64,000 bases of DNA. It comes from Candidatus Margulisiibacteriota bacterium. Its GTDB lineage: Bacteria; Margulisbacteria; Riflemargulisbacteria; GWF2-39-127. The stretch lies in contig QKMY01000023.1 in assembly GCA_003242895.1 (NCBI GenBank), positions 1,982-65,981 on the forward strand, read 5' to 3'. The notes under the pieces were generated by a model that was given only the letters and a program-made list of their open reading frames with translations, was not told the DNA's origin and did no database searches. Every line of letters starts with the position of its first letter. The first letter of the stretch is position 1. Position numbers and translations under genes: made by a program. This document shows, one piece after another, positions 1 to 36,404 of this stretch.

Positions 1-525
1 ACAAATGTGAGGATTATATCAGCTAGTAATGAAGAGTTAAGCCGGAAAATAGAGAAAAACGAGTTTCGGGAAGATCTTTATCATAGAATAGCAGTGGTTC
101 CGTTAACAATTCCGCCTTTGCGTAAAAGGCAAGACGATATCCGGTTATTAGCATATTATTTTCTTGATAAGTTTAACACTAAATATAACAAAAACTTCTC
201 GGTAATAGAGGATGATGCTTTGTCCGTAATGAACTCATATCTTTGGCCAGGTAACGTGAGAGAGTTGGAGCACTTGATGGAGCGGATTGTATCTCTGGAA
301 GAAGACCGGATTGTTAAGTCGTCAGTCCTCCCTTTAGAAATGTTTGTTAAACGGGTCATACAAGAAGAGGATTCTACCTTTAAAAAACTGGTTTCGGATT
401 TTGAAAGGCATCTCATTGCAGGTGCTTTAAAGAAATGTGATAATAACCAAACTAAAACTGCTCTGATGCTTGGCCTTTCACGTACAACTTTGATCTCAAA
501 AATTGATTTATTAGGTATTAAGTAA
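1..525 (+). CDS. sigma-54-dependent transcriptional regulator (NtrC/Fis family), C-terminal fragment; 5' end lies outside the window
   Basis: Frame 1 is open from nt 1. It carries the AAA+ C-terminal part (ELEHLMERIV) and a Fis-type HTH (KTALMLGLSRTTLISKIDLLGI), typical of sigma54 enhancer-binding proteins. Confidence 0.8.
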   Translation, partial: TNVRIISASNEELSRKIEKNEFREDLYHRIAVVPLTIPPLRKRQDDIRLLAYYFLDKFNTKYNKNFSVIEDDALSVMNSYLWPGNVRELEHLMERIVSLEEDRIVKSSVLPLEMFVKRVIQEEDSTFKKLVSDFERHLIAGALKKCDNNQTKTALMLGLSRTTLISKIDLLGIK

Positions 526-2952
526 TGCCAGGTTTATTATAAAGGCAGTTCCTTTGCCTACTTTAGAATTGACAGTTATTGATCCATTATGGCTGTTTAT
601 AATTTGTGCTACTGTGCATAGGCCAATCCCTGTTCCGTTTTGTTTCGATGTGAAAAACGGTTCGAAAATACGTTCTTGTATTTCAGGAACAATCCCTCTC
701 CCTGAATCCGAAATGGTTATCGTAATTTTTTCTTCATCAGCGTATGATTCTATTTTTATGACCCCATTCGAGCCAATTGATTCAATCGAGTTAAGTATCA
801 AGTTGTTGAAGACGGATATAAAGTCCTCTTTACATAAAAATATCGGATAGGTTCTGGATAGGCCCAGCTCCAGTTTGATATTTTTTATAGTTAATTGATG
901 GTAGAAAATAGTCGCAGCTTCTTCGATTATATCTTCAATGAAACCTTGTTCTTTTTTTCCACTTCCGGGTTTAGAATAAGTCAGTAGAGTTTTTATTTTA
1001 TTATCAATCCGTTCAAGCTGCCTTGGAACAATATCCATGAATTCTTTAAGATAATCCTGATCGTTGATCATTTCAGGTAACACTTTAACGAGAGGGATAA
1101 TAACAGCGAGAGGATTTTTTATTTCGTGTGCAAGGCTTGCGGAGATTTTTCCTACGATTGATAATTTCTCGCTGTGCAAGAGAGATTTTTCTGTCTCGAT
1201 CATTCTTTCATTATTGAAGCAGTTAGCCAGTGCTAGTGAAATATGGCGTGATAATGATGCCAATAATTTTAGCTCACCAGCAGAGTATGCTTTTTTGTTT
1301 GATTTGCTGCCAAAAAAGAGGATGCCGATAAATTCATTTTTATAACAAAGAATAGTAGCAACTTCAGATTTCAGTGAATCTATAATATCTTTAATAAAGG
1401 GTAAATTTTGTAAAATATCTTCATCGTAATTTGTAATGAAATTAAGAGACTTTATTGTTTTGATTTGTTCATGAGAAATATTGTATTTGTTTATTTGGGA
1501 CTGGTCTGTTTCGATATAATTATGGATAGATGAGTTTTTTGTGTTATAAAAAAACACTGATAATTCAGTTATAAGAAAGTATTTTCTAAAAAGTTTATTT
1601 GCATGTTCTATTAGTACTTTTTTGTCGAGACTGGTAGCTATATGGTCAGAATAGTAATCCATGGCAGGTTTTAGTATCGTTTGTTCGGGAAAAAAGAAAT
1701 GGTCGGAGTACCTTTGTAAGATATATCGTAAGGGTTCAAGAAAGATAAATAGTACAAAAATATAAATGGTTGAAAATAAAATAAGGCTTTCTGTGCTCAA
1801 GCTAACTACGAGGGAATCTAAAACAATAATATAGATGCTAGCGAAGCTTAACGATAACGTTGTATATAGCAATGTTTTATTTATGAGCAGGTTAAAATCC
1901 AATATATGATTGTTAATTATCCCATAAGTCAGGGTTCCGTAGAGAATAAGTTGTGAGATCATGATTACGAGGTCATAGTAGCCTTGAAAAGCTTCAGGAA
2001 TTAAAAATAATTGAGGTAAGAGAAAAAGACATATAAAAATTGATAATGACAAAAGAATTCCTATAATAATTTTTTGTATCTTTTTTTTGTAGTATTTTTT
2101 GGTATCGGTTATCCGGGTATGGAACAATCCCCTGACTCCAAACAGAAAACACACGAATGTGTAAATAATGAAGGCTTGATTGAAATTGTCAAACGAGAAT
2201 CCCCATAGATAGGTATACAGCGTATCACTTTGGCAGATTGGCCAGCTCATAAGGACCGGTACAGATAGTAGGGCAGGAGCATACAATATCTTTGAATAAA
2301 TAGAAGGTAAATTTCTTTTATAAGACAAAGTATAACAAAAGTGCAAAAAGGAAGCTGGAAAAAACAAGTACCCTAGTCGATGAAAAGCAAATATATTCCC
2401 GGCTATAGTCTCATAGCCAAGCTGTGCAAGAATATGCTGGATGAACGAGGCAAGATAGAAGCTAAAAGGCCCAAGTATGGATATAAAAAATGGTAATCCA
2501 AGGTAGTGATGCCTGTCTCTGATTATAATGATAACAAAAATAGTAAGGAAAAAGAATGTCGTCATTAATCCGATCAGGGTTATCGCTAACTTGTAGTTCC
2601 TTGATTTCTTGGGTAAAACAATAGCAAATTTGGTTTCTTTTTTATTGAAATATTTGCTTGTAATTAGTTTGTCTGATTTGTCTGTGACAATTATTTGGTA
2701 GGGGGATCGGGGATCTATTGAATAAAACTCTACTTGCCCATTGTAGCTTGTTATTCGTTTTTCTTTGTTATTGTTCTGGACGGCAGTAACACCGTGTCCG
2801 TAATTTACATAAATATTTTTTTCGTAGATATAGCCTTTAACAGTTGCCGGAAGTGATGAATGCATCCAATGATTTGCAAAGAATATTAGTGGTATTGATA
2901 TAAGTAATAGTGAGATTAATACATTAATTATGATTTTTTTTTTAATACTCAT
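511..2952 (-). CDS. sensor histidine kinase with N-terminal 7TM-DISM-like multi-TM sensor, GAF-like region, HisKA and HATPase_c
   Basis: Domain order is signal/TM, a periplasmic segment, about 7 TM helices, then the H-box (SLAHEIKNPLAVI) and G-box (GTGIGLCTVAQIINSHNGSITV). The ORF track extends to a TTG at 3015. The ATG at 2952 (MSIKKK...) is the more plausible start but this is uncertain. Its 3' end overlaps the convergent regulator by 15 nt. Confidence 0.75.
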   Translation of the reverse strand: MSIKKKIIINVLISLLLISIPLIFFANHWMHSSLPATVKGYIYEKNIYVNYGHGVTAVQNNNKEKRITSYNGQVEFYSIDPRSPYQIIVTDKSDKLITSKYFNKKETKFAIVLPKKSRNYKLAITLIGLMTTFFFLTIFVIIIIRDRHHYLGLPFFISILGPFSFYLASFIQHILAQLGYETIAGNIFAFHRLGYLFFPASFLHFCYTLSYKRNLPSIYSKILYAPALLSVPVLMSWPICQSDTLYTYLWGFSFDNFNQAFIIYTFVCFLFGVRGLFHTRITDTKKYYKKKIQKIIIGILLSLSIFICLFLLPQLFLIPEAFQGYYDLVIMISQLILYGTLTYGIINNHILDFNLLINKTLLYTTLSLSFASIYIIVLDSLVVSLSTESLILFSTIYIFVLFIFLEPLRYILQRYSDHFFFPEQTILKPAMDYYSDHIATSLDKKVLIEHANKLFRKYFLITELSVFFYNTKNSSIHNYIETDQSQINKYNISHEQIKTIKSLNFITNYDEDILQNLPFIKDIIDSLKSEVATILCYKNEFIGILFFGSKSNKKAYSAGELKLLASLSRHISLALANCFNNERMIETEKSLLHSEKLSIVGKISASLAHEIKNPLAVIIPLVKVLPEMINDQDYLKEFMDIVPRQLERIDNKIKTLLTYSKPGSGKKEQGFIEDIIEEAATIFYHQLTIKNIKLELGLSRTYPIFLCKEDFISVFNNLILNSIESIGSNGVIKIESYADEEKITITISDSGRGIVPEIQERIFEPFFTSKQNGTGIGLCTVAQIINSHNGSITVNSKVGKGTAFIINLALLNT

Positions 2953-3126
2953 ATCAAAAGATTCTACTTTCTGTGATTTTTTTGTAAATTTGAAATAGTT
3001 TAATTTTTTCTTCAATGCTTTTTATGGATCTAATTTCAGTGCTTTTTTTCATTTTTCTCTTATTTAAGTTTAAAACATTTTCTTTCATTTTTAAAATACT
3101 CCTTGAATTTATTTTTATTTAACAAG

Positions 3127-3332: not shown

Positions 3333-3857
3333 TTAATGTTGGTAGAGATTATTTCCTAGAGAGTCAATAGTTACAAATAAAGGGAGATCTTCAACGACTA
3401 ATTTGTGTATTGCTTCTGGCCCTAGATCGTGAAATGCAATAATAGTGGATTCTTTAATATATGAGGAAATCAGTGCTGCAGTTCCTCCAATACATGTGAA
3501 ATATACTGCTTTGTTTTTTTTGATTGATTCTATCGTTTCATGATTTCTATTTCCTTTGCCTATCATTCCTGCAAGGCCGCGGTCGAGGAGGGCAGGGGTA
3601 TAAGCATCCATCCGGCAGCTGGTTGTTGGGCCCGCTGACCCTATGGTTTGTCCAGGTTTCTTTGGGGTTGGCCCGACATAATAAATTATTTGCCCTTTGA
3701 GCTCAAACGGAAGGCTCTTGTTACTTTCTATGAGTTCAATGAGTTTTTTGTGGGCAGCATCACGTGCGGTGAAAATGGTGCCTGATAGGAATACTTTTTC
3801 GCCGGCACGTAGTTTGTTGAGGATATCTTTCGTGAGTGGAGCGCTTATCTTAGACAT
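3333..3857 (-). CDS. class I fumarate hydratase (Fe-S hydro-lyase), beta subunit
   Basis: Shows the fumarase/tartrate dehydratase beta-type catalytic domain signature (GTIFTARDAAHKK... YYVGPTP... SCRMD). An AAAGGAG RBS sits 8 nt upstream. Confidence 0.85.
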   Translation of the reverse strand: MSKISAPLTKDILNKLRAGEKVFLSGTIFTARDAAHKKLIELIESNKSLPFELKGQIIYYVGPTPKKPGQTIGSAGPTTSCRMDAYTPALLDRGLAGMIGKGNRNHETIESIKKNKAVYFTCIGGTAALISSYIKESTIIAFHDLGPEAIHKLVVEDLPLFVTIDSLGNNLYQH

Positions 3858-4401
3858 GTATTATCTCCTTTTCTGTTACAATAAAGTCCATAGGGATATC
3901 GTGTGAGCCAGACTTGAGTTGGTCGACAATTTGGAATGAATAAGCCAATCCAATTTTTATCCCATGATAGTTATGAAGTATCCTATCGTAGAAGCCTTTC
4001 CCAAATCCTACTCTATGGCCCTGTTTATCGAACGCGATCCCTGGAACGATAGTTATTTGAATATCGTTGATGCTATCTGCGTTGAGGTTCTGAGTGGCTG
4101 GAATTCCGTAAGTATGCGTTACAATGTCTTTTAGTGACGATATTTTGGATGGTACCATTTGAGAGTGATTAGCATCAATAATATACGGAACATATATGAT
4201 TTTCTCTGGTATCCATGATTTAATCAAGGCTATGGTATCTACTTCATTTTTGCAGGATATATAAGTAAAAATTGTTTTTGATGTATTAATTGCTTCAATT
4301 TTGAGTAAATTATTCTGGATCTGTGTACTTAATATGGTTACTTCCTCAGGATAAAGGTTTTTTCTTTTTTCTAATATGCTTTGTCTGATAGCTTGTTTCA
4401 T
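3850..4401 (-). CDS. 5-formyltetrahydrofolate cyclo-ligase
   Basis: About 183 aa and carries the characteristic GFGKGFYDR motif. It overlaps the downstream fumarase beta gene by 8 nt. Confidence 0.8.
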   Translation of the reverse strand: MKQAIRQSILEKRKNLYPEEVTILSTQIQNNLLKIEAINTSKTIFTYISCKNEVDTIALIKSWIPEKIIYVPYIIDANHSQMVPSKISSLKDIVTHTYGIPATQNLNADSINDIQITIVPGIAFDKQGHRVGFGKGFYDRILHNYHGIKIGLAYSFQIVDQLKSGSHDIPMDFIVTEKEIIHV

Positions 4402-4418
4402 ATGTATCAGTCTTTGTC

Positions 4419-5261
4419 TTATAGAATTATTTCTTTATGCCTTGAGCTATGGCACTGAATATTTATAGCGACCGGTAAGGATGCTATGTGGCAAGGATAA
4501 GAATTAATTTTGACGCTAAGTGCAGTTGTCGTGCCTCCAAAACCGGCTGGACCAATGTTGAGTTTGTTGATTTCTTGTAGGAGCTCTATCTCTTTTTTAG
4601 CATAGAAATCATCATCATTTATGTCATCGATTTGTCGTAGAAGGGCTTTTTTTGCTAATAATGCGCAGTATTCAAATGTGCCGCCAATACCAATTCCAAC
4701 GATAATTGGAGGGCATGGATTCGCTTCAGCTTCAGTGACCGTAGCTATTACGAATCTTTTGATTCCTTCCCAGCCATCGGAGGGTTTTAGCATTGCTAAC
4801 TTGCTCATATTTTCTGCTCCGCCGCCTTTGGGACAGAACGATATTTTTAGCGAATCTCCGGGAACGATTGAAGTATGTATGATTGCTGGCGTATTATTCT
4901 CAGTATTTTTCCGTCGAAGAGGATCTTTGACAATCGATTTTCTTAAGTAGCCTTCTTGATATCCTTTGCTTACTCCGGTATTAATCGCAGAGTAGAGATC
5001 CCCGCCGCTAATGTGGACTTCCTGTCCCAGTTCAATAAAGAAAACAGCAAATCCAGTGTCTTGGCATAAGGGAATCTGATTCGTTGCTGCTATCCTTGTA
5101 TTCTGGATAATAAGATCAAGTATCTCTTGGCCTAAACAAGAGCTTTCAGTAGTTTTGCTCAGTTCAAGAGCTTTCTGTACATCCGTTGGTAAATATAAAC
5201 AGGCATTAATACAGAGATCTCTTATTGCTTTTATTATTTGATTACAATTTATTATTTTCAT
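4419..5261 (-). CDS. class I fumarate hydratase (Fe-S hydro-lyase), alpha subunit
   Basis: Has the CQDTG Fe-S ligand motif and the length of the alpha/catalytic-N subunit of two-subunit fumarases. Confidence 0.85.
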   Translation of the reverse strand: MKIINCNQIIKAIRDLCINACLYLPTDVQKALELSKTTESSCLGQEILDLIIQNTRIAATNQIPLCQDTGFAVFFIELGQEVHISGGDLYSAINTGVSKGYQEGYLRKSIVKDPLRRKNTENNTPAIIHTSIVPGDSLKISFCPKGGGAENMSKLAMLKPSDGWEGIKRFVIATVTEAEANPCPPIIVGIGIGGTFEYCALLAKKALLRQIDDINDDDFYAKKEIELLQEINKLNIGPAGFGGTTTALSVKINSYPCHIASLPVAINIQCHSSRHKEIIL

Positions 5262-6520
5262 TAAAGGTTTTTAATAATTGCTTGTGCATACTCCGATGTT
5301 TTTAATTCTTTTGCACCTTCTGTTTGTCGTGCAAGATCATAGGTTACTGTTTTTGCTTGTATAGTTTTCTCGATTGCTTTGTTTATAGCTTGTGCCGCAA
5401 GATCCCAAGCCATATATTCTAACATCATAACTGCTGAAAGTATCAAAGATCCTGGGTTAGCTTTATCAAGCCCTGCATATTTCGGTGCAGTACCGTGTGT
5501 AGCCTCGAAAACGGCGGTGTAATCTCCAATATTTGCGCCTGGTGCCATTCCCAGTCCGCCAACTTGCGCAGCACACGCGTCACTTAAATAATCTCCGTTA
5601 AGGTTAGGCATGGCTAATACGTCATATTCATCGGTCCTTATAAGAATTTGCTGGAACATGTTATCAGCAATTCTATCGTTAATAATTACTTTGCCTTCAG
5701 GTGCGATACCATTATAGATGCTGGTTACTTCTGCTTCGGTAATAGTGGCGTCCGCAAATTCTTTTTTTGCGAGTTCGTACCCCCATTCTTTAAATGCGCC
5801 TTCAGTGAATTTCATGATATTCCCTTTATGTACGATCGTAACCGTTTTTCGGTTATGTTCGATTGCAAACTTGATTGCCTTCCTTACTAATTGTTCCGTA
5901 GCAGTTTTCGAAATGTTTTTTATTCCTATTCCGGAGTCTGCGTTAATATTAATACCAAATTCTTTATCGAGGAATCTGATTATTTTTTTTGCTTCTTTTG
6001 AGTCTTTTTCCCATTCTAGCCCTGAATAGACATCCTCGGTATTTTCTCTGAAAATGACAACGTCCATTTTTTCAGGGTGCTTGACAGGTGCCGGAACCCC
6101 CGTGAAGTAACGGACCGGGCGAACACAGGCATAGAGGTTAAGTTTCTGCCGAATGGCTACGTTAAGGCTTCGCATTCCACCTCCGACTGGAGTTGCAAGA
6201 GGTCCTTTAATCGATATTGCGAATTCTTCAAGCGCATTTAGTGTATCTTTTGGAAGGTAGTTGCCGTCATACAGCTTGTTTGCTTTTTCGCCTGCAAAGA
6301 TTTCGAGCCAAATAATCTTTTTTTCTCCGTTATAAGTTTTTGCTACGGCCGCATCGACTACTGCAATCATTGCCTTAGTTATATCAGGGCCAATACCATC
6401 TCCTGCGATATAAGGAATAATCGGATTGTCTGGTATGGATAGAATTCCATTCTTTGTATTTACTTTTGAGCCTTCCTCCGGAAGCGTGATCTTTTCATAT
6501 GAATAGTTGAACATTGACAT
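5261..6520 (-). CDS. icd: NADP-dependent isocitrate dehydrogenase
   Basis: N-terminus reads ...[14 protein letters not shown] and the IDH signature [27 protein letters not shown] is present. Start taken at the ATG at 6520 (MSMFNY), which has an AAAGGA RBS. The ORF track extends to 6556. Confidence 0.9.
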
Positions 6521-6636
6521 TGTTTGATCCTTTCTAATTCCTGGTCTTGTTGTCATCTCGTAGTTTTAGGTCGAGCGAAATTCAATAGTTTATCCGCTAA
6601 ATTTTTACTTATGATGAAACTGGGAATAATTATTTG

Positions 6637-7140
6637 TTATATTGAAAGCTTAAAGTCTCCATGTTTAGCAATGTGGGAAGCAAGTCCGCCATCATTGAGG
6701 ATTGTTATCATAACGTCAGGTAAGGGAACGAAAGTAATATCGATACCAGTTGTTATGTTCTTAATGATGCCTAGTGAAAGGTCAATTTCCAAAGTGTCCC
6801 CCTGATTAATCAAATCGGTATCACATATTAAAGCTGGAAGTCCGACATTTATCGCATTTCGGAAAAAAATCCTTGCAAATGATTTTGCCAGTACTGCTGA
6901 TACCCCTGACAGTTTAATGATTGTTGGTGCATGTTCCCGGCTGGAACCAAGACCAAAGTTGCTTCCTCCGACTACGATATCGCCCGGGGACATGCTCGAT
7001 GCAAAGTTAGGATCTGCATCTTCTAATACGTGTTTTGCTAATTCCGGCAAATTAGATCGAAGATGAAACAATCGCCCGGGGGCTATGTGGTCCGTACTAA
7101 TATTATCTCCAAATTTCCACGATTTACCTGTTAAAGACAT
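6637..7140 (-). CDS. aconitase-family small subunit (LeuD-like, archaeal-type); probably an aconitase or (homo)aconitase small subunit
   Basis: A 167-aa LeuD-type swivel domain (GDNISTDHIAPGR). Lies in an operon with the large subunit, a citrate-synthase-like gene and icd. Confidence 0.8.
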   Translation of the reverse strand: MSLTGKSWKFGDNISTDHIAPGRLFHLRSNLPELAKHVLEDADPNFASSMSPGDIVVGGSNFGLGSSREHAPTIIKLSGVSAVLAKSFARIFFRNAINVGLPALICDTDLINQGDTLEIDLSLGIIKNITTGIDITFVPLPDVMITILNDGGLASHIAKHGDFKLSI

Positions 7141-7156
7141 TGATTAAAAGTCCTCC

Positions 7157-8410
7157 TTACATAAGATCTCTAGGATCAGAAATTTCACCTTTAATTGCTG
7201 CTGCTGCTGCTGTAGCAGGAGAAGAGAGAAAGATATTCCCTTTTACATTTCCCATTCTTCCTTCGAAGTTCCTGTTCTGTGTCGCGAGACAGTTTTCTCC
7301 GTCACCTAATATTCCTTGATGGACACCAACGCAAGCGCCACAACCCGGAGTGTTGATCGCTGCTCCAGCCTCAATAAATGTTTCAATGAGGCCTTCGCGT
7401 ACGGCGTCAAGAAAAACTTGCTTTGAAGCAGGTGTTACAATGAGTCTGGTTGCTGGGTGCCTTTGTTTGTTTTTAAGTATCTGGGCCGCAATTCTCAGGT
7501 CTTCGAGCCGTCCATTAGTGCAGGTCCCAATAAATACTTGATGGACCTTGATCCCAAGGCTTTCCTTGATTGTTTTTGTGTTATCGACAGTGTGAGGGTG
7601 CGAAATCATTGGCTCCAGTTTTGTCACATCAATTTCGATAACCCTATCGTAGTCTGCATTATTGTCTGGTTCCAGGGAAACCCATTTATCGCCTCTGCCC
7701 ATTTTTTCTAAATAATCTTTAGTTATCTCGTCAGAACTGAATAAACCGCATTTAGCGCCGGCTTCAACAGCCATATTCGCAAGTGTAAGTCTGTCATGCA
7801 TCGGCATTTTATCTATTGTTGGGCCGCAAAATTCGAGAGATTTATATGTTGCACCGTCAGCGCCTATCAACCCGATGAGATGTAACATCAAATCTTTGGC
7901 GTATACTCCTTTGGGGAAATCTCCTGTAACGGCAATTTTAAATGTTTCAGGGACTCTAAGCCATGTTCGGCCAAGTGCTATCCCGATTGCTACATCGGTT
8001 GATCCCATTCCGGTAGCAAAAGCGCCTAAGGCTCCACCGGTGCACGTATGAGAATCGGCTCCTATTATTATATCCCCGGGATTAATGTATTTTTCTGCTG
8101 TGATCTGATGGCATACACCTTCGCCAACATCGCTCAGTATTGCTCCTGTTTTTTTTGCGAATTCACGTAAGGCCATATGATCGTTCGAGAGTTCTTTTCG
8201 TGAACTGGGCGCTGAATGATCGATAAATAGGATTGTTCTCTCGGGATTTGAAGCTTTTTCCAGCCCGATTTTTTGCAGTTGTTTAATTGCTAAAGGGCCT
8301 GTTCCGTCTTGAGTGATACAGATGTCAACCTTTGCAATAACGATTTCACCTGCAGAAACGTCTTTGTCTGCATGTGCGCTAATTATTTTTTCTACTAACG
8401 TTTTCCCCAT
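7157..8410 (-). CDS. aconitase-family large subunit (LeuC/HacA-like, archaeal-type)
   Basis: A 417-aa aconitase catalytic domain with Fe-S Cys ligands (GTCTNGR, PGCGACVG). Confidence 0.8.
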   Translation of the reverse strand: MGKTLVEKIISAHADKDVSAGEIVIAKVDICITQDGTGPLAIKQLQKIGLEKASNPERTILFIDHSAPSSRKELSNDHMALREFAKKTGAILSDVGEGVCHQITAEKYINPGDIIIGADSHTCTGGALGAFATGMGSTDVAIGIALGRTWLRVPETFKIAVTGDFPKGVYAKDLMLHLIGLIGADGATYKSLEFCGPTIDKMPMHDRLTLANMAVEAGAKCGLFSSDEITKDYLEKMGRGDKWVSLEPDNNADYDRVIEIDVTKLEPMISHPHTVDNTKTIKESLGIKVHQVFIGTCTNGRLEDLRIAAQILKNKQRHPATRLIVTPASKQVFLDAVREGLIETFIEAGAAINTPGCGACVGVHQGILGDGENCLATQNRNFEGRMGNVKGNIFLSSPATAAAAAIKGEISDPRDLM

Positions 8411-8424
8411 TGATTGCCTCCAGA

Positions 8425-10239
8425 TTAATCTAATTTTGCAATTTCTTCAAAGCGAATATCCATTCCAATAATACCGCAGATATTGTCTTGTAAATCGACA
8501 ATCGGCGCGGACACTGTTATACACCAGGCGCCAGTTATTCTTGAAGTATAGAATTTTGTCGCATGATGCTGACCGTCCTGTAGCGGAGTCAGGAACCATG
8601 TTCTGTCTGAAAAATTAGTATTCATGTCGATGGATTGATCGTATTTTCCTTTGTCTTCTAACTGAGATATGTTTTTGGTTATTTTCTGTCCATCAGTATT
8701 GACGACGTAAATAAACTGGATAAAATGGTACTTGTTGGCATAATTAAGAAGTATTTTTTCTATAATTGATGCCTTCATGGTTTTTAGTTCGTCTCTATTG
8801 CTGATTTCTTCAAGTATTTCGAATGCAGTTTCTTTTACTTCGTCAATTAATCGATCGAAGTCGGATTCTACTAGCCCAGGAATATGTATTTTGACCTGTT
8901 CAAGCAACTCTTCATTCGAAACGTCAGTGGTCCTTCCATTATCATATTCTTCCAGAATCCAGTCATATATTTTCTTAACTCCCGGGTGTCGCTTATTAAT
9001 CGATTCGACTTTTTTATCTTTAACCACGTAAACGTTAATCCAATGCGCAACACCAGCAACACCTGACTTGTCTGATACAGAAACATCAAGAGTCCTGTTA
9101 AGCAATTTGTCAGTGTCAAAAATACTGTATATTTCTCTGTTTTTAATAACGCCATCTGCATGAATTCCTGCTCTTGTGGTGTTGAAGTCACGGCCTAGGA
9201 ATGGGTAGTTATAAGGGATAGTGTACTCAAGTTCTTTTTCGAAATATTCACCGATTTCGGTGATAACGGTTGTATCAATTTCTTTGTCATTTCCATAAAG
9301 GCTTATATATTCGATAATTGCTGCTTCAAGGGGAGAATTGCCGGTTCTTTCTCCAATTCCAAGCAATGAAGCGTTAACAGCGGCGCATCCGTAGAGCCAC
9401 GCTGTTACAGAATTAGCATGAACTTTGTGAAAATCATTGTGTCCGTGCCATTCAAGATGTTCGGATGGAACCCCCCCGTCATGGACAAGGCTATGAATTA
9501 TCTTGGCAACACTTCGTGGGAGCGCAGCATTAGGATATGGTACCCCGTAACCCATTGTATCGCAGGCCCTTATTTTTATAGGAATGCCGGATTCTTCCTG
9601 CAGCTCCATTAACTTCTGCACAAAGGGGATTACGAATCCATAGATATCTGCCCTGGTAATGTCTTCCAGGTGGCAGCGAGGTATAATTCCTTCTTCTAAA
9701 GACGTTCTCACGATGTCTAAATAAGAGTCCATCGCTTCTTTTCTTGTTTTGCCGAGTTTCAGAAAAATATGATAGTCAGAGACTGAAGTGAGTATCCCTG
9801 TTTCCTTTATTCCCATTTCTTTGACAAGTTTAAAGTCACTTTTAACTGCTCTGATCCAACTCGAGATAATTGGATATTTATAATCAAGTTCCATACATTT
9901 TTCTACAGCTTCGCGATCTTTTTTGCTATAAAGGAAGAATTCGGTCATTCTAATGAGTCCATGAGGCCCGCTAAGTCTATGCAGATATTTATAGAGCTGT
10001 ACTATTTGCTCAACGGTATAGGGTGGACGGCTTTGCTGTCCATCACGGAAGGTCGTGTCTGTTATCCAGACATCTTTTGGCGGCGATGGGAGTATTATCG
10101 AACTGTCAAAGTCGATTTTACATACCTCATCAAAGGGAAAAGTATCTCTATACAATTGAGGTTCTTTGACGTCTTGAAGGTCAAATTTAATTCTTTGCTT
10201 GCTTGCAAATAAACCACTGGAATCTTTAACGATAGTCAC
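8425..10239 (-). CDS. LeuA/NifV/Re-citrate-synthase family acyl-CoA:2-oxoacid condensing enzyme with a C-terminal Cache/PAS-like small-molecule-binding domain
   Basis: The DRE-TIM HMGL-like catalytic core (DTTFRDGQQS ... HGHNDF) is followed by about 150 aa matching the Cache pattern (YVVNTDGQKI..SDRTWF...YTSRITGAWCITVSAPIVD..NICGIIGMDIRFEEI). Operon context with aconitase and icd suggests a citrate (Re-type) synthase role. Confidence 0.7.
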   Translation of the reverse strand: MTIVKDSSGLFASKQRIKFDLQDVKEPQLYRDTFPFDEVCKIDFDSSIILPSPPKDVWITDTTFRDGQQSRPPYTVEQIVQLYKYLHRLSGPHGLIRMTEFFLYSKKDREAVEKCMELDYKYPIISSWIRAVKSDFKLVKEMGIKETGILTSVSDYHIFLKLGKTRKEAMDSYLDIVRTSLEEGIIPRCHLEDITRADIYGFVIPFVQKLMELQEESGIPIKIRACDTMGYGVPYPNAALPRSVAKIIHSLVHDGGVPSEHLEWHGHNDFHKVHANSVTAWLYGCAAVNASLLGIGERTGNSPLEAAIIEYISLYGNDKEIDTTVITEIGEYFEKELEYTIPYNYPFLGRDFNTTRAGIHADGVIKNREIYSIFDTDKLLNRTLDVSVSDKSGVAGVAHWINVYVVKDKKVESINKRHPGVKKIYDWILEEYDNGRTTDVSNEELLEQVKIHIPGLVESDFDRLIDEVKETAFEILEEISNRDELKTMKASIIEKILLNYANKYHFIQFIYVVNTDGQKITKNISQLEDKGKYDQSIDMNTNFSDRTWFLTPLQDGQHHATKFYTSRITGAWCITVSAPIVDLQDNICGIIGMDIRFEEIAKLD

Positions 10240-10358
10240 TTTGGCACCTCATTGTTTTTCTTGCGTTTTTGAGTCAATAATTTGTTGAGTCATTATATCA
10301 TAGTAAAGCTCATAACCACAATATATCCTGGACAAATTCTATTTCGATTGGTTATAGC

Positions 10359-10387
10359 CTCAGTCCTGCTCCAAAAGCGGGACTGAG
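10359..10387. terminator. GC-rich hairpin between the GH57 gene and the TCA operon (weak terminator candidate)
   Basis: An 8-bp stem (CTCAGTCC...GGACTGAG) with a 13-nt loop. A T-run follows only on the plus side (10402-10407). Confidence 0.25.
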
Positions 10388-10416
10388 ATAGATAATAAAG
10401 ATTTTTTGTGGCTTAA

Positions 10417-13008
10417 CTACGGCCAATATTCCGGACTGTTGAATAAATGCTCAAGGAATGGACTAATTTGTTTTTTGTAGTTTTCTACCTCGAAGTTTAG
10501 CAATTCCGCAATAGAGAGCATATCATTTATTTCTTCAATCTCACGTGTGTTCTTTTCCGGGTTTATTACTTTGCTTGTTTTTTTCTCAACATTAAGCAAT
10601 AACTCGAACATTATATTCTGCGCAGTCATAGATTCTAGGTTGATATCAAACTCTTTTGCTATTTTAAACAACATCCTGATGTCTTTTGTTGTTTCGAATG
10701 AATATTTTTTCTGCAGTGAAATCATTAAATTAGTTAGCGATTTTACAAGCATCCGGCATATTTTGGAATTATTTATCGTTAGTTTATAACGTTTGGCTAA
10801 TCTCCATAGTTCAAAGGCATCTTCATATGCGGAAAAATTGAAGTTCTCCCGGTTTTTCTCAAGTTCGGACAGGAGCATCATCTCAATTGAAAGCTCAGCA
10901 GTGAATTTTAGCTGGACAGGAAGATTAATTCCAAGAGAGACCGCCGATCCAATAAGATCAATATTGTGATGGTAAATGTTAATGAAGGATTCATTGATTG
11001 CATCGGTCCTCTGTTCCAGAATACTTTGTATGAGTTCCTGGCTCTCTTCCATGTAAATGTCTTTTAGTGTGTAATACCTGTCTTCGCACATCTGTTCTAT
11101 TTCATAAGGAGTGGCGTTTCCTTTTTGATTGATAATTTTTAAGGCATTGGTCTTGCATTTATTAAAATCTTCGTGGTTGCTTATTTTCTTTATGTAGCTT
11201 CGAAAGTTATTGAAATCAAGCTGTACGGTATAAGAAAAATATTTCGCTGTTTCCCGGGTTAACTTGTCGGTTGTTTCAATATAAAGAAAAATAAGATTGT
11301 AATTTTCTGCTTCAATTATCTCTTCGTCTGGGTGAAAGCTTTTATCCAGAACTTTGATTGAATGCAGGCATATTTCATCTTTGGGGAATTTCTGTAAGAT
11401 GAGGTAGTTAATCCCGAACTGATTTACTATCATTTGAGGCGATATAATGTGAGGTTTTATCCAATTAACATATATGTTTTCACCATTATTGCCATTTCCC
11501 AGGTTCGATTCTGCTTCTTTTAGTTTTGAAAGAAATAATTTTTCAAGATCAATATCTGTAAATTCTTGATAGATTTGTATTGCTCTTGCTGCATACTTGA
11601 TTACCTGTACTGTCTCGATGCCGGAGATATCGGCAAAAAACCATGCGCAGCTTGTATACATGAGTAGTGCATTTCTTTGCCCTTCGAGCAGTTTAAGGAT
11701 TTTGCTTTCTTCTTTTTCTGTTAGGTCTTTTAGCTTGCTGCGATTGAGAAAACTATCTATTGATGAAGTGCTTCTATTCAGGATAACGTTAATATAGTCA
11801 TCTCTGGTATCCCATGGGTTGGTTACTAGCCCTTTACTTTCTTTTTCAAATATCATAATCATATGATCCCGGAGTAAGTCTAGCGACTGGCGAAGCGGAG
11901 CTCTCCATTGCTGGTTCCAGCCTTCTTGAGCTCCAGTGCTGCAGCCGCAATCACGATACCATCTGCCGACGCCGTGTGCACAGCTCCAGGCAGTACCTTC
12001 GCCTCCCCAATTTTTGAGGACTACTTCGTCTGTCGGTGGGTACATAGCAAGGTAGTTTCCATAATTGGTTACAGTGAATTCTGTGTTTTTGATTTCTTTG
12101 AAGAACATGTATGCAAGGCACATGTCTCCAAAGGCTTCATGATGCCCGTATGATTCTCCATCAGTACCTATATTAATTAACTGTGGCGGTTTGCGGTTGT
12201 GATCGATAGCAGTGTGAAGCCTGTTCGAAAACGCTGAAGCGCTTTTTAATATATGCTCAAATGCGACTGCTTGGGATATTGGGCCATCATAAAAGAATAC
12301 ATCGAGATATTTGCCGGAAATGTTTTTATCATTTTTATCCTTAAGATAAATGCGGTAAGGTTTCTTGGGATCTATCGAACTGTTTGATACATCGGCCCAC
12401 TCTGTTTTGCCGAATGATCGTACCTTAAGCGCTTGTGTCGGCGAGAGAACTGTGAACTTAATCCCTTCAGCAATTAAGCACTCAGCAGTTTCTTTGTTTA
12501 TTGCCGTCTCTGCCAGCCATATTCCTTCCGGTATCCTTTTGAACCGATGTGTGAAATCAGCCATTCCCCATTTTATCTGGGTGATTTTATCTTTTTTATT
12601 AGCCAGCGGCATAATAATATGATTATATACTTGGGCGATACCATTCCCATGACCGTTATTATCTTTGATGCTTTTTTTGTCTGCTGCTAAGATCCTATAA
12701 TACGTGTGAGGATCTTTTGCTTCTATCCATTGTATAAGCGTGGGACCTATATCAAAGTTAATATGCTCATAATTATTCATTATTTGAATTATTCTCCCTG
12801 CGTTATTAAGAACGCGGGACACAGAGTTAGGGCGATAGCACTGATCATTGATTTTTTGATTCCAATCATGAAAAGGGCTTGCGCTATCCTGTATTTCTAT
12901 TTGCTCACTCCAGGGATTTTCTCTTGGAGGTTGATAAAAATGTCCATGAATTGTAAGACATATCATCGGTTTGTTTTTTCTTTTTTTTCCTATATTCATA
13001 GTTGCCAA
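10417..13008 (-). CDS. glycoside hydrolase family 57 protein (alpha-glucan-active; GH57 catalytic domain plus a long C-terminal helical region)
   Basis: The N-terminus carries the HGHFYQPPREN motif typical of GH57. Total length is 863 aa. Confidence 0.8.
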   Translation of the reverse strand: MATMNIGKKRKNKPMICLTIHGHFYQPPRENPWSEQIEIQDSASPFHDWNQKINDQCYRPNSVSRVLNNAGRIIQIMNNYEHINFDIGPTLIQWIEAKDPHTYYRILAADKKSIKDNNGHGNGIAQVYNHIIMPLANKKDKITQIKWGMADFTHRFKRIPEGIWLAETAINKETAECLIAEGIKFTVLSPTQALKVRSFGKTEWADVSNSSIDPKKPYRIYLKDKNDKNISGKYLDVFFYDGPISQAVAFEHILKSASAFSNRLHTAIDHNRKPPQLINIGTDGESYGHHEAFGDMCLAYMFFKEIKNTEFTVTNYGNYLAMYPPTDEVVLKNWGGEGTAWSCAHGVGRWYRDCGCSTGAQEGWNQQWRAPLRQSLDLLRDHMIMIFEKESKGLVTNPWDTRDDYINVILNRSTSSIDSFLNRSKLKDLTEKEESKILKLLEGQRNALLMYTSCAWFFADISGIETVQVIKYAARAIQIYQEFTDIDLEKLFLSKLKEAESNLGNGNNGENIYVNWIKPHIISPQMIVNQFGINYLILQKFPKDEICLHSIKVLDKSFHPDEEIIEAENYNLIFLYIETTDKLTRETAKYFSYTVQLDFNNFRSYIKKISNHEDFNKCKTNALKIINQKGNATPYEIEQMCEDRYYTLKDIYMEESQELIQSILEQRTDAINESFINIYHHNIDLIGSAVSLGINLPVQLKFTAELSIEMMLLSELEKNRENFNFSAYEDAFELWRLAKRYKLTINNSKICRMLVKSLTNLMISLQKKYSFETTKDIRMLFKIAKEFDINLESMTAQNIMFELLLNVEKKTSKVINPEKNTREIEEINDMLSIAELLNFEVENYKKQISPFLEHLFNSPEYWP

Positions 13009-26965: not shown

Positions 26966-28786
26966 ATGAAGAGAAAATCTATTAAGGTTATATTGTGCAT
27001 TCTTATTGTATTTGCAATTGTCGTATTAAACCAGTTGCCCTTATTTAAGTTGTTCCACTGGAAACTAACTGATTTGAAGTTTGTCGTGAGAGGCCCGATA
27101 AAGACTCCGACAAATATTGTTATTATCGCTATAGACGATGAGTCCATTGCTTGGTTAGGTACCTGGCCGTGGCCAAGAAATAAATATGCTCAATTAGTTG
27201 ATCAGCTTAAGTTGGCTGGCGCGAAATTGATTTTTTTCGATATTTTATTTGATTCTCCCACGAGCTTTGATCCTGATGATGATGTCAAGTTTGCCCAGTC
27301 GATCAAAAAATCCGGTAATGTCCTCTTGGCTGCGTATTTCAAAAATACTGAAAATAATAGCTTTGTTCGCTATGTTCAGGATCCATTTAATCCTCCGATA
27401 AAACTATTGAAAAATTCTGCACTTGATATCGGAATGGTAGACATTAGTTTTGACAAATCCCAGGTAATAAGAAAAATCCCGATGTTGTTTTCAGGAGATA
27501 TAAAATATCCGAACCTAACATTGCAGGCTGTCCGTTATATTCAAGCAGATAAGCCTCCTATTAAGCATTTATCTTCTTCTATAGTTGTGGGTAAATACGC
27601 AATGCCTATTTCCCAAGACCGGCGGTTCGTTATTAACTATCGCGGTGGGGCTAAATCATTTCCATATATTCCATTCGATAGGGTGATTGATGGCTCGTTT
27701 ATCAAGAAAAATCCCAACTTCCTGAAAGATAAAATCGTTTTAATCGGTGCTACAGCTATTGAATTGCAAGACTATATCGCCACCCCGTTTTCGAATATCG
27801 TCCCGGGAGTGGAAATGTATGCTAATGCCATTCAAACTGTTTTAGATCGTAATTATTTGTACGAAAGTCCTCCATGGTTTGATTTTCTGGTAGTCCTGTC
27901 TTTGTGTATTATCTCGATAAAGTTTTTCTTAAGCTTATCATCCAGAAGAGCCTTTGTGTTTTTCCTTGCCTGTACGATTGTTATTATGGCAGTAGATTTG
28001 GTTGTTTTTTTAAAAATGAATTATATTCTTAAATCGTTTGAATATTTTTCGGCGCTATTGTTTCCCTTTATCGGATTAATTGGTTACAGGTATTACAAAG
28101 AAGAAGAGGAAAAGCGATATGTTAAGAGCGTTTTTTCTCAGTATGTTGATCCCAGCGTTGTTAACAAGCTCCTAGAACATCCGTCTCGTATTATTTTAGG
28201 TGGGGAAAAGAAACAGGTTTCTATTTTTTTTAGTGATATCAGGGCATTTACTACGTTTAGCGAACGGCATTCTCCTGAAGTGGTTGTCGAGTATCTTAAT
28301 GAATACCTTGATGCCATGACCAAAGTGATCTTTGAGCATAAAGGGACGCTGGATAAATATGTTGGCGATGAGATCATGGCAATATACGGTGCACCGCTTG
28401 AGATGCCTGACCACGCAAAAGTTGCAGTAGAAGCTGCGCTAAGCCAGTTGGATATGCTGCAAAAAATTAATGAAAAAAGAGCGAGGGAAGGCCGGGATCA
28501 ATTCGGTATCGGGATGGGAATTCACACCGGGGAAGTGGTTATCGGAAATATTGGCTCTACCATGCATAAGGATTATACGGTTATTGGGGACTCCGTCAAT
28601 CTCGCTGCCAGATTAGAGTCGACAACCAGAAATTATGGGACCAAAGAGAGTCCGGTTAATTTAATTATTTCTGAGGATACCTATAAGTTAGTGAAGGATT
28701 TCTTCATATGTGAATATCTCGATGAAATTATTGTAAAAGGGAAAACGATTCCTGTTAATATCTATTCTGTTGTTGGGAGAAAGTAA
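26966..28786 (+). CDS. CHASE2 sensor domain-containing class III adenylate/guanylate cyclase
   Basis: An N-terminal TM is followed by a periplasmic CHASE2 domain, more TM helices and a cyclase domain (FSDIRAFTTFSE, YVGDEIMAIYGAP). Confidence 0.8.
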   Translation: MKRKSIKVILCILIVFAIVVLNQLPLFKLFHWKLTDLKFVVRGPIKTPTNIVIIAIDDESIAWLGTWPWPRNKYAQLVDQLKLAGAKLIFFDILFDSPTSFDPDDDVKFAQSIKKSGNVLLAAYFKNTENNSFVRYVQDPFNPPIKLLKNSALDIGMVDISFDKSQVIRKIPMLFSGDIKYPNLTLQAVRYIQADKPPIKHLSSSIVVGKYAMPISQDRRFVINYRGGAKSFPYIPFDRVIDGSFIKKNPNFLKDKIVLIGATAIELQDYIATPFSNIVPGVEMYANAIQTVLDRNYLYESPPWFDFLVVLSLCIISIKFFLSLSSRRAFVFFLACTIVIMAVDLVVFLKMNYILKSFEYFSALLFPFIGLIGYRYYKEEEEKRYVKSVFSQYVDPSVVNKLLEHPSRIILGGEKKQVSIFFSDIRAFTTFSERHSPEVVVEYLNEYLDAMTKVIFEHKGTLDKYVGDEIMAIYGAPLEMPDHAKVAVEAALSQLDMLQKINEKRAREGRDQFGIGMGIHTGEVVIGNIGSTMHKDYTVIGDSVNLAARLESTTRNYGTKESPVNLIISEDTYKLVKDFFICEYLDEIIVKGKTIPVNIYSVVGRK

Positions 28787-36040: not shown

Positions 36041-36404
36041 AATGAACGCTCCTTTTTAGAATGTATTTTAACCTGTCAGCTATAATAACGTTAAATCTGA
36101 GATATGTTAAGGATATAAAAATACGGCAGCCGTTTGGCTTTTGGTTATTAATAGAATGCATTGATGATGCTCGTGGTTTAGCTTCTTTTTTTCGCATATT
36201 TTTTAATATTATAGCGCTTCTATCCGTAGCGTAGAATTCCTTTTTCCTAGTTGACGCAGGGCCCAGCTTTCCCTTTGAGCCTCTGACGTGCTTCCTGGCG
36301 CATTCTTCTTTTGCATTGCTTTCCAATAGTATTTTATAAAATTCTAAGTATATGATAAACTTAGAAAATCATTGTTATTCAATATAAAAGTTAGGAAATC
36401 CCAA

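Follow-up and report, generated by a model that had tools for sequence, protein, structure and literature searches.

A single Cache module at the C-terminus of a Re-citrate-synthase-family enzyme from Candidatus Margulisbacteria: a candidate cytoplasmic sensor of amino acids

A condensing enzyme of the Re-citrate synthase family carries, at its C-terminus, a single cytoplasmic Cache/PDC module in which most of the residues used by amino-acid receptors to bind their ligand are kept. The gene (8425..10239, minus strand) is an open reading frame with a GTG start that encodes 604 amino acids plus the stop, and it heads an operon in the window, that is, the whole 64,000-nucleotide stretch of DNA analysed. 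An identical protein was found in groundwater metagenomes, within a Ca. Margulisbacteria cluster. On the basis of residue conservation and of analogy with related enzymes, we lean towards the tail acting as an allosteric sensor on Re-citrate synthase, with an amino acid, for instance glutamate, as its probable ligand.

The preliminary description of this DNA had recognised the pattern of Cache/PDC sensor domains in the interval 8425-8850, which corresponds to residues ~464-604 and the stop codon. The strings that it quoted (YVVNTDGQ, SDRTWF, ITVSAPIVD and GIIGMDI) are all present in the translation of 8425..10239, and the assignment itself is borne out by profile and fold comparisons. Residues 501-601 (8437..8739, minus) match PF22673 (MCP-like_PDC_1) with an E of 3e-14 and 53.8 bits (gathering cutoff 27). 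The dCache_1 model is matched by residues 458-600 along its first half only (19-155 of 240 positions), with 37.5 bits, below the cutoff of 45. The tail, of about 150 amino acids (residues ~456-604), is a single PDC/Cache module that corresponds to the membrane-distal one of dCache_1, and the double-module architecture of the latter is absent. All of the 28 diverse tails compared match the Cache models PF22673 and PF02743.

Fold prediction points in the same direction. The tail opens with long N-terminal helices of the Cache kind (residues ~456-503; 8731..8874, minus), placed by the AlphaFold2 models at 460-480 and 490-503; a long N-terminal helix has been described as a Cache hallmark (PMC4822843). 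In the model of residues 440-604 (pLDDT 87.1, pTM 0.79), the predicted helices spanning 460-503 are followed by predicted strands at 507-514, 572-581 and 587-596. In a Foldseek search of the PDB with the tail model, the top 50 matches were all PDC/Cache sensors with a probability of 1.00, including KinD (the best), WalK, Tlp3, DctB, CitA and the cytoplasmic YkuI, at query-normalised TM-scores of 0.45-0.64. The match of the tail to Cache is far beyond chance.

A confident alignment of the C-terminal region with the LeuA-dimer domain, which would have argued for a different fold, was also looked for. LeuA_dimer (PF08502) gave no match at E <= 1 in the 604-aa protein, and no LeuA regulatory domain appeared among the top 50 Foldseek matches of the tail. 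LeuA_dimer or another known regulatory domain was rejected as the identity of the tail, having no support from Pfam, NCBIfam or fold. YkuI_C (PF10388) reaches 18.4 bits for this tail against a cutoff of 26, with weak matches in 7 of the 28 tails. It had also been suggested that the Cache domain replaces a LeuA-type regulatory domain. This holds for its position, but not for a replacement as such, as the nearest relatives are tail-less enzymes of 445-480 aa without any regulatory domain; judged by sequence comparison, a short enzyme was extended by the tail, and no domain was exchanged for another.

No transmembrane segment is present in the protein (its highest 19-residue Kyte–Doolittle mean is 1.35), and the module is therefore cytoplasmic. 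Its setting departs from the usual context of Cache domains, as it lies C-terminal to an enzyme, without an output domain, and not between transmembrane helices. That context is common but not compulsory: an extracellular location has been predicted for 78% of Cache domains, YkuI_C and Diacid_rec being the two principally intracellular families (PMC4822843).

The AA_motif of the dCache_1AA amino-acid sensors comprises Y121, R126, W128, Y144 and D173 in PctA (Gumerov et al. 2022, PMC8915833). In that receptor, the R126A change lowers affinity 61-fold, and D173, which contacts the amino group, abolishes binding when changed to A or N (PMC8915833); R126 also sets sensors of amino acids apart from those of amines (bioRxiv 10.1101/2023.04.06.535858). 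HMM alignment to PctA, with the codons verified, locates a putative ligand-pocket motif at 8458..8604 (minus), made up of R546 (8602-8604; R126 in PctA), W548 (8596-8598; W128), F549 (8593-8595; Y129), Y564 (8548-8550; Y144), S566 (8542-8544; D146) and D594 (8458-8460; D173). R546, W548, Y564 and D594 align to AA_motif positions in both PctA and Tlp3, and the W-to-Y spacing of 16 residues equals that of PctA. These four of the five motif positions are kept among 266 unique tails, with R546 in 261 (98%), W548 in 266 (100%), Y564 in 247 (93%) and D594 in 266 (100%), while the fifth, PctA Y121, is occupied by T, D or E. F549 and S566 are likewise present in 266 of 266. Since the invariant S566 stands where PctA has D146 (D169 in Tlp3), the ligand specificity may differ.

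The rest of the tail is far less constrained, with a mean identity of ~44%, compared to ~63% in the core. Its helices and surface are variable, and the invariant residues are those that line the pocket in homologous sensors. Searching PDB sequences with the tail profile gave Tlp3 (E 2e-10), KinD (5e-10, second) and PctA (3e-8), and most of the leading matches are receptors for amino acids (Tlp3, PctA, PctC, PctB, Mlp24 and Mlp37), KinD being a pyruvate sensor. The tail shares with dCache_1AA sensors such as PctA, Tlp3 and Mlp24/37 the equivalents of R126, W128, Y144 and D173 at the same spacing, and the structural aromatic Y129 is kept as Phe. However, these sensors are double-module receptors with transmembrane helices and a signalling output, whereas the tail is single, cytoplasmic and placed on an enzyme, a setting unlike that of every validated dCache_1AA domain. 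The conservation of the ligand-pocket residues makes allosteric control both more specific and more plausible as a role for the tail.

The nature of the ligand admits a second reading, in which the tail would sense a carboxylic acid that lacks an amino group (pyruvate, citrate, 2-oxoglutarate, succinate or oxaloacetate) and exert feed-forward or product control. As the ligand of KinD is pyruvate, a plain carboxylate is conceivable here; KinD is the best Foldseek match, and R546 corresponds in alignment to its Arg131, the site of a deposited R131A mutation. The fold matches further include DctB (succinate/malonate) and CitA (citrate), and both the loss of Y121 and the Ser in place of PctA D146 are compatible with such a ligand. 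We nevertheless regard this reading as rather doubtful: D594, the counterpart of the PctA residue that contacts the amino group, is invariant and Y564 is conserved in 93% of the tails, KinD has neither the Trp nor this Asp in the profile alignment, and the leading sequence-profile matches, KinD excepted, are receptors for amino acids.

A third reading would dispense with the ligand, the tail being a structural or oligomerisation module kept for enzyme stability, such as a stabiliser of a dimer or tetramer that acts through the long Cache helix. PAS and Cache domains are often dimerisation modules (PMC8694187), and tail-less enzymes are functional. The C-terminal domains of isopropylmalate synthase (IPMS), of which LeuA_dimer is the regulatory module, contribute to the dimer (PMC9860122). 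We consider a purely structural role improbable, as the confinement of invariance to pocket-lining positions, amid variable helices and surface, is hard to explain by a scaffold alone. The sensory reading of the tail, with an amino acid as the probable ligand, is the one followed below.

Two Re-citrate synthases serve as references for the core of the protein: that of Syntrophus aciditrophicus, reportedly characterised by Kim et al. in 2013 (J Bacteriol 195:1689), and that of Clostridium kluyveri, said to have been characterised by Li et al. in 2007 (J Bacteriol 189:4299). Identity to S. aciditrophicus SYN_02536 is at least 53% over 588 aa, in full length, the sequence having been read by machine (PMC12016533 supplement). 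Identity to C. kluyveri CKL_0973 is 52% over 450 aa, with the alignment ending at about residue 463 of the 604-aa protein. The DRE-TIM/HMGL-like catalytic barrel occupies residues 58-330 (9250..10068, minus; Pfam HMGL-like PF00682, E 6.5e-29), and its motifs ITDTTFRDGQQ (R65, D66) and EWHGHND (H265, H267) are invariant in 32 aligned sequences. Foldseek matches include the catalytic domains of homocitrate synthase (HCS), IPMS and citramalate synthase (CMS). The barrel is followed by an accessory subdomain that resembles HCS_D2 (residues 355-402; 9034..9177, minus; a weak PF22617 match, E 0.0015, below cutoff), in a region of low AlphaFold2 confidence (residues 352-386). A helical C-terminal part of the core comes next (residues 403-455; 8875..9033, minus), and tail-less Re-citrate synthases stop at about this point.

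The assignment of the core to the Re-citrate synthase family, already proposed in the preliminary description, is supported by its similarity to both characterised enzymes and by its operon with aconitase and isocitrate dehydrogenase genes. It is very improbable that the enzyme is instead a homocitrate, citramalate or isopropylmalate synthase, with neighbours serving a homoaconitase/homoisocitrate pathway: its best NCBIfam matches are of the NifV/LeuA type, the dehydratase subunits match HacA/HacB-family models and JGI names the family mostly 'isopropylmalate/homocitrate/citramalate synthase', but the 604-aa protein scores far under the curated cutoffs of the NCBIfam models for NifV, LeuA and CimA (e.g. 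140.8 vs 462.9 bits), identity to the two proven Re-citrate synthases is 52-53% and in one case full length, the dehydrogenase lies above the equivalog cutoff for NADP-IDH, and some tail-bearing members bear the JGI label 'citrate (Re)-synthase'.

The operon, likewise anticipated, is evident from the profile matches and the gene spacing. All of its genes lie on the minus strand. The Re-citrate synthase gene is followed after 14 nt by the gene of the aconitase large subunit of LeuC/HacA type (7157..8410; NF001614, 587 bits vs a cutoff of 385; Pfam Aconitase, E 3.5e-104), after a further 16 nt by that of the small subunit of LeuD/HacB type (6637..7140; TIGR02087, 180.9 bits vs 109), and after 80 nt by that of NADP-dependent isocitrate dehydrogenase, NADP-IDH (5261..6556; TIGR00183 equivalog, 665.8 bits vs 567.3). 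The aconitase is a two-subunit LeuCD/HacAB-type enzyme, a precision to what had been described before. The tail of the operon (3333..5261) encodes a class I fumarase alpha subunit (4419-5261; Pfam Fumerase), 5-formyl-THF cyclo-ligase (3850-4401; Pfam 5-FTHF_cyc-lig) and a fumarase beta subunit (3333-3857; Pfam Fumerase_C), with an NF004885 match of 422.5 bits. The same gene order recurs at four loci (L004, L024, L025 and L031) and partly at others.

The operon promoter probably lies in the 177-nt intergenic region upstream of the gene (10240..10416, minus). A scan of this region gave one weak sigma-70-like match (10347..10320; 9/12 positions), and as the match total did not exceed the shuffled expectation, it provides no promoter evidence. 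Promoter and terminator scans taken together were not above shuffled expectation either, and Rfam and tRNA scans of the 64-kb window returned no match.

A survey of the fusion, which had been recommended, shows that it is widespread, occurring in hundreds of protein clusters from many anaerobic phyla and also in the characterised enzyme of S. aciditrophicus. Its carriers include the genetically tractable Desulfovibrio (L041, L045 and L050). Far from being rare, the fusion has also been annotated already, through Pfam and NCBI 'cache domain' labels. Public records also hold misannotations of the family, namely 'histone-lysine N-methyltransferase', 'EAL-associated domain-containing protein' (NCBI) and 'triose-phosphate isomerase'. 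Tail-less homologues of the C. kluyveri type, whose loci match up to residues 450-460, are found in Kuenenia, Lachnospiraceae and Bacteroidota. The tail is dispensable for catalysis, because these orthologues have equally similar cores and that of C. kluyveri is active. Cores resembling Re-citrate synthase were also seen in fusions with a receiver or an ACT domain.

The pairwise identities of core and tail vary together (r = 0.76; Mantel 0/999 permutations), and this correlation favours one old fusion. In a neighbour-joining tree of the core, tail-less clades lie inside a grade of tail-bearing sequences, with short internal branches and without support values, a pattern compatible both with one gain followed by several losses and with several gains. 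Stand-alone tail proteins of the 'Rosetta stone' kind proved to be artefacts: one (L085) is explained by a scaffold gap of 100 N within an otherwise normal fusion gene, and a short tail match (L086) comes from a 5'-truncated gene copy followed by the isocitrate dehydrogenase gene. A word-indexed homologue search with the tail only returned 10 fragments, all from the same family.

The closest known counterpart is SYN_02536, whose Re-citrate synthase activity has been shown biochemically (PMC12016533). It has the same two-part architecture, with SDREWF, FYIS and GVDIR in its tail, and differs in belonging to Syntrophales, rather than to a Ca. Margulisbacteria MAG, and in having ~25 extra C-terminal residues. 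The searchable literature, whose coverage leaves out the original characterisation paper, contains no description of the SYN_02536 tail as a Cache domain, and no paper in it pairs 'Re-citrate synthase' with 'Cache'. CKL_0973 agrees in core, reaction and role in the synthesis of glutamate, but lacks the Cache tail. B. subtilis YkuI (PDB 2bas/2w27; fold match E 1.3e-5) offers a parallel in layout, as a helix links its cytoplasmic EAL domain to a Cache-like YkuI_C domain at the C-terminus, although its partner is a c-di-GMP signalling domain and not an enzyme of central metabolism.

A parallel in logic is provided by LeuA/IPMS, CimA and Sulfolobus HCS, which share with the present enzyme the DRE-TIM barrel, accessory helices and, in the reading proposed here, a C-terminal domain that regulates in response to a small molecule (LeuA_dimer in both LeuA and CimA, with Leu or Ile as ligand). 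End-product control of the first enzyme of an amino-acid branch would be common to all of them, whereas the regulatory fold is unrelated. Sulfolobus homocitrate synthase has a C-terminal RAM domain, PDB 6ktq being the RAM-deleted form.

In the mechanism that we propose, a cytoplasmic Re-citrate synthase would convert acetyl-CoA and oxaloacetate into citrate, as the first enzyme of the oxidative branch that leads through isocitrate to 2-oxoglutarate and serves anaerobes as the route to glutamate. The Cache/PDC module, joined to the C-terminus through a long helix and comparable to the ligand-binding, membrane-distal half of dCache_1, would bind a small cytoplasmic metabolite and tune the catalytic barrel allosterically. 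R546 and W548 would hold the carboxylate and Y564 and D594 the amino group; because of these contacts, the ligand would most probably be an alpha-amino acid such as glutamate. Control would likely be transmitted through a dimeric, domain-swapped arrangement, as in isopropylmalate, citramalate and homocitrate synthases; the full-length AlphaFold2 model (pTM 0.58) is too uncertain for contacts between tail and barrel to be read from it. The result would be end-product feedback, analogous to that of leucine on IPMS, isoleucine on CMS and lysine on HCS.

More specifically, and only tentatively, the tail may be descended from the universal dCache_1 amino-acid sensor and act in the cytoplasm, where glutamate, or a close relative, would bind to it and feedback-inhibit Re-citrate synthase. 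No description of the regulation of Re-citrate synthase was found in the searchable literature.

Sulfate reducers, syntrophs, Nitrospirota, Margulisbacteria and many uncultured anaerobes enter the synthesis of 2-oxoglutarate and glutamate through Re-citrate synthase. While the fusion itself has already been labelled, the function of its tail appears to be unstudied, and the retention of most residues that contact amino acids in receptors points to a probable role as a feedback switch in glutamate synthesis. The S. aciditrophicus enzyme, already available in expressed form, has the module, and that of C. kluyveri is its natural tail-less counterpart. The identification also corrects a widespread misannotation of the family in public records. 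If the proposed role is true, this would be the first Cache domain to serve as a built-in allosteric module of a central-metabolism enzyme, and not as a signalling input, and it would explain how carbon is gated into the oxidative TCA branch across many anaerobic phyla. Cache domains, and specifically their amino-acid motif, would then extend from receptors to the direct allosteric control of cytoplasmic enzymes.

The reading frame at positions 8425..10239 (minus strand, GTG start) encodes a protein of 604 amino acids, and the interval 8425-8850 corresponds to residues ~464-604 plus the stop codon. All the peptide strings quoted in the preliminary description were found in its translation, with the codons re-verified; the NCBI model of this protein is 16 residues shorter (588 aa). 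In Pfam-A, an HMGL-like (DRE-TIM barrel) domain covers residues 58-330 (E 6.5e-29), HCS_D2 matches weakly behind the barrel at residues 355-402, and MCP-like_PDC_1 (PF22673) covers residues 501-601 at 53.8 bits (gathering cutoff 27). The dCache_1 model matched the tail under its cutoff (37.5 bits) over model positions 19-155 of 240, its first half, and LeuA_dimer gave no match in the protein even at E <= 1. A Kyte-Doolittle scan with 19-residue windows peaked at a mean of 1.35 and thus gave neither a transmembrane segment nor a signal-like stretch; the protein is therefore cytoplasmic.

Structural statements on the tail derive exclusively from predicted models. The AlphaFold2 model of residues 440-604 (42-sequence alignment; pLDDT 87.1, pTM 0.79) begins with long helices at the N-terminus and continues with a helix-flanked sheet. 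The best 50 Foldseek matches of this model in the PDB were all PDC/Cache sensor domains (50/50, probability 1.00), including the pyruvate-binding sensor KinD (E 2e-8), WalK/YycG, Tlp3, DctB, Mlp24, CitA and the cytoplasmic YkuI, and the LeuA regulatory domain was absent among them. From sequence alone, a profile of 28 diverse tails matched Tlp3 (E 2e-10), KinD (5e-10) and PctA (3e-8), as well as PctC, PctB, Mlp24 and Mlp37, and Pfam Cache models were matched by 28/28 of these tails. A LeuA-dimer identity is therefore ruled out, and the Cache-type tail first proposed on inspection of the sequence is upheld. The tail forms one module, the counterpart of the membrane-distal module of dCache_1. 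In the full-length AlphaFold2 model (pLDDT 73, pTM 0.58), interdomain contacts are not resolved.

The residues of the putative ligand pocket were mapped through HMM alignments to the amino-acid receptors PctA and Tlp3 (PctA chain index + 8 gives the published numbering). In the amino-acid motif of Gumerov et al., Y121, R126 and W128 touch the ligand carboxyl, while Y144 and D173 touch the amino group; the R126A change reduces PctA affinity 61-fold, and D173A or D173N abolishes binding (PMC8915833). Y129 is a structural aromatic residue, and R126 distinguishes amino-acid sensors from amine sensors (bioRxiv 10.1101/2023.04.06.535858). Among 266 unique tails, W548, F549, S566 and D594 (PctA W128, Y129, D146 and D173) are kept in 266/266, R546 (R126) in 261 and Y564 (Y144) in 247, and the W548-to-Y564 spacing of 16 residues is identical to that of PctA. 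By contrast, the position of Y121 is variable (T, D or E). Thus, four of the five motif positions, covering both halves of the motif, are strongly constrained in an otherwise drifting domain, which points to a putative ligand bearing both carboxylate and amino groups. The strongest rival reading is a carboxylate without an amino group: R546 aligns with KinD Arg131, the residue changed in the deposited R131A mutant. However, KinD lacks the Trp and Asp found in the tail.

The fusion is widespread. The HMGL + Cache architecture was found in 120/120 best matches of the window protein and in 119/120 of those of a Syntrophus homologue, and groundwater metagenomes contain the identical protein. A total of 474 relatives were confirmed among one-genome-per-species contigs; the tail is present in 57 and absent in 21 of the 78 best parsable loci, a ratio biased toward query-like loci by the ranking on query similarity. 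Tails occur in Nitrospirota, Desulfobacterales, Syntrophales, Syntrophorhabdus, Thermodesulfobacteria, Desulfovibrio/Bilophila/Mailhella, Omnitrophota, Lentisphaerae, Spirochaetales, Elusimicrobia, Armatimonadota and Termititenax. Tail-less relatives belong to Kuenenia/Brocadiaceae and other Planctomycetota, Auribacterota, Endomicrobiales, Lachnospiraceae, Epulonipiscium, Muribaculum and Bacteroides. Tail-less and tail-bearing cores are equally close to the window core (58-64% and 55-66%), and in a neighbour-joining tree without support values the tail-less clades are nested among tail-bearing ones. At 50% clustering, the tail-bearing group reduces to roughly two full-length representatives. 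Within tail-bearing proteins, the identity of the core correlates with that of the tail (r = 0.76; Mantel 0/999 permutations; mean identity 63% in the core and 44% in the tail), which fits one old fusion that co-evolved with the enzyme. Together, these comparisons indicate that the tail is accessory to catalysis, ancient and retained in many lineages. A purely structural role is a weaker rival, as it is the pocket positions that are constrained within this drifting domain. Two apparently stand-alone Cache-tail proteins proved to be artefacts or truncations: locus L085:3233-4001 contains a 100-N scaffold gap inside an otherwise normal fusion gene, and locus L086:1-3303 holds core residues ~340-454 and the tail; IDH follows immediately, and small reverse ORFs occupy the expected place of the barrel.

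Regarding the enzyme, matches to the NifV, LeuA and CimA NCBIfam models are all far under cutoffs, and PDB sequence and fold searches relate the core to the catalytic domains of homocitrate, isopropylmalate and citramalate synthases. The comparison with the two characterised Re-citrate synthases is decisive; their sequences were machine-read from the PMC12016533 supplement with some letters dropped, so the identities of 52% over 450 aa (C. kluyveri CKL_0973) and 53% over 588 aa (S. aciditrophicus SYN_02536) are lower bounds. CKL_0973 shares the core but ends at window residue ~463, whereas the SYN_02536 alignment spans the entire tail. Some tail-bearing members are already labelled 'citrate (Re)-synthase' in JGI. 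As the preliminary description held, the gene lies in an operon with aconitase and icd: a two-subunit aconitase of the LeuCD/HacAB type (6637-8410, minus) follows directly downstream with gaps of 14 and 16 nt, and then, on the same strand, NADP-isocitrate dehydrogenase (665.8 bits against an equivalog cutoff of 567.3), class I fumarase alpha (4419-5261), 5-formyl-THF cyclo-ligase (3850-4401) and fumarase beta (3333-3857). Unrelated genomes show the same synthase-aconitase-IDH order (loci L004, L024, L025 and L031). On this evidence, the enzyme is filed as a Re-citrate synthase, in line with the earlier reading, its stereochemistry being predicted. A different substrate specificity is the weakest rival, given these identities and the dehydrogenase score. 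The aconitase passes only subfamily-level NCBIfam cutoffs, so the context is what suggests its substrate range, citrate or homocitrate.

Several features of the surroundings were also recorded. The operon aconitase is neither AcnA nor AcnB, and the cyclo-ligase gene sits between the two fumarase subunit genes and shares 8 nt with the beta gene. Upstream, a glycoside hydrolase with GH57 and DUF3536 domains (863 aa, 10417-13008, minus) adjoins the synthase, and all metagenomic copies of the locus show this neighbour as well. Just downstream of the operon lies a histidine kinase (511-3015, minus) with a weak GAF match, no obvious partner and no Pfam match in its first ~550 residues. Farther away are a CHASE2-adenylate/guanylate cyclase (26966-28786, plus) and three large plus-strand ORFs without Pfam matches at E <= 1e-5: 32692-35082 (796 aa), 36372-37868 (498 aa) and 50920-52392 (490 aa).

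A Cache module with a conserved putative pocket is thus attached to a cytoplasmic Re-citrate synthase. This module would bind a cytoplasmic metabolite and allosterically modulate the catalytic barrel; small-molecule allostery of some kind through the tail is likely. The leading type of ligand would be an alpha-amino acid, a tentative assignment, with glutamate as the logical candidate since the operon product, 2-oxoglutarate, is its precursor; glutamate in particular is less likely than not. The analogy for such regulation is with sister enzymes that have C-terminal regulatory domains: those of IPMS adjoin the partner subunit's catalytic domain (PMC9860122), and Sulfolobus HCS has a RAM domain (PDB 6ktq). 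Other database proteins with Re-CS-like cores carry an N-terminal response-regulator receiver domain (P0132), a weak C-terminal ACT match (P0164, P0199) or a C-terminal ATP-grasp/L-amino-acid-ligase region (P0152), so the scaffold seems to recruit add-on regulators or partners repeatedly.

Cache domains are mostly extracellular (78%) and linked to signalling outputs, with only YkuI_C and Diacid_rec classed as intracellular families (PMC4822843), whereas this tail is cytoplasmic and sits on a metabolic enzyme. Public names in the family, which includes the database cluster of the window protein (P0401 = OGH98735.1 and others), are misleading: 'histone-lysine N-methyltransferase' (also given to Candidatus Margulisbacteria MAG entries at NCBI in the 90% cluster of the window protein), 'EAL-associated domain-containing protein', 'triose-phosphate isomerase' and 'cache domain-containing protein'. 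The terms 'Re-citrate synthase' and 'Cache' occur together in no paper of the searchable literature. The fusion as such was already on record, since Pfam and NCBI annotate it and a characterised enzyme contains it. The novelty lies in reading the tail as a third type of regulatory module at the C-terminus of DRE-TIM condensing enzymes, and in the near-complete amino-acid-sensor motif that this putative regulatory module bears.
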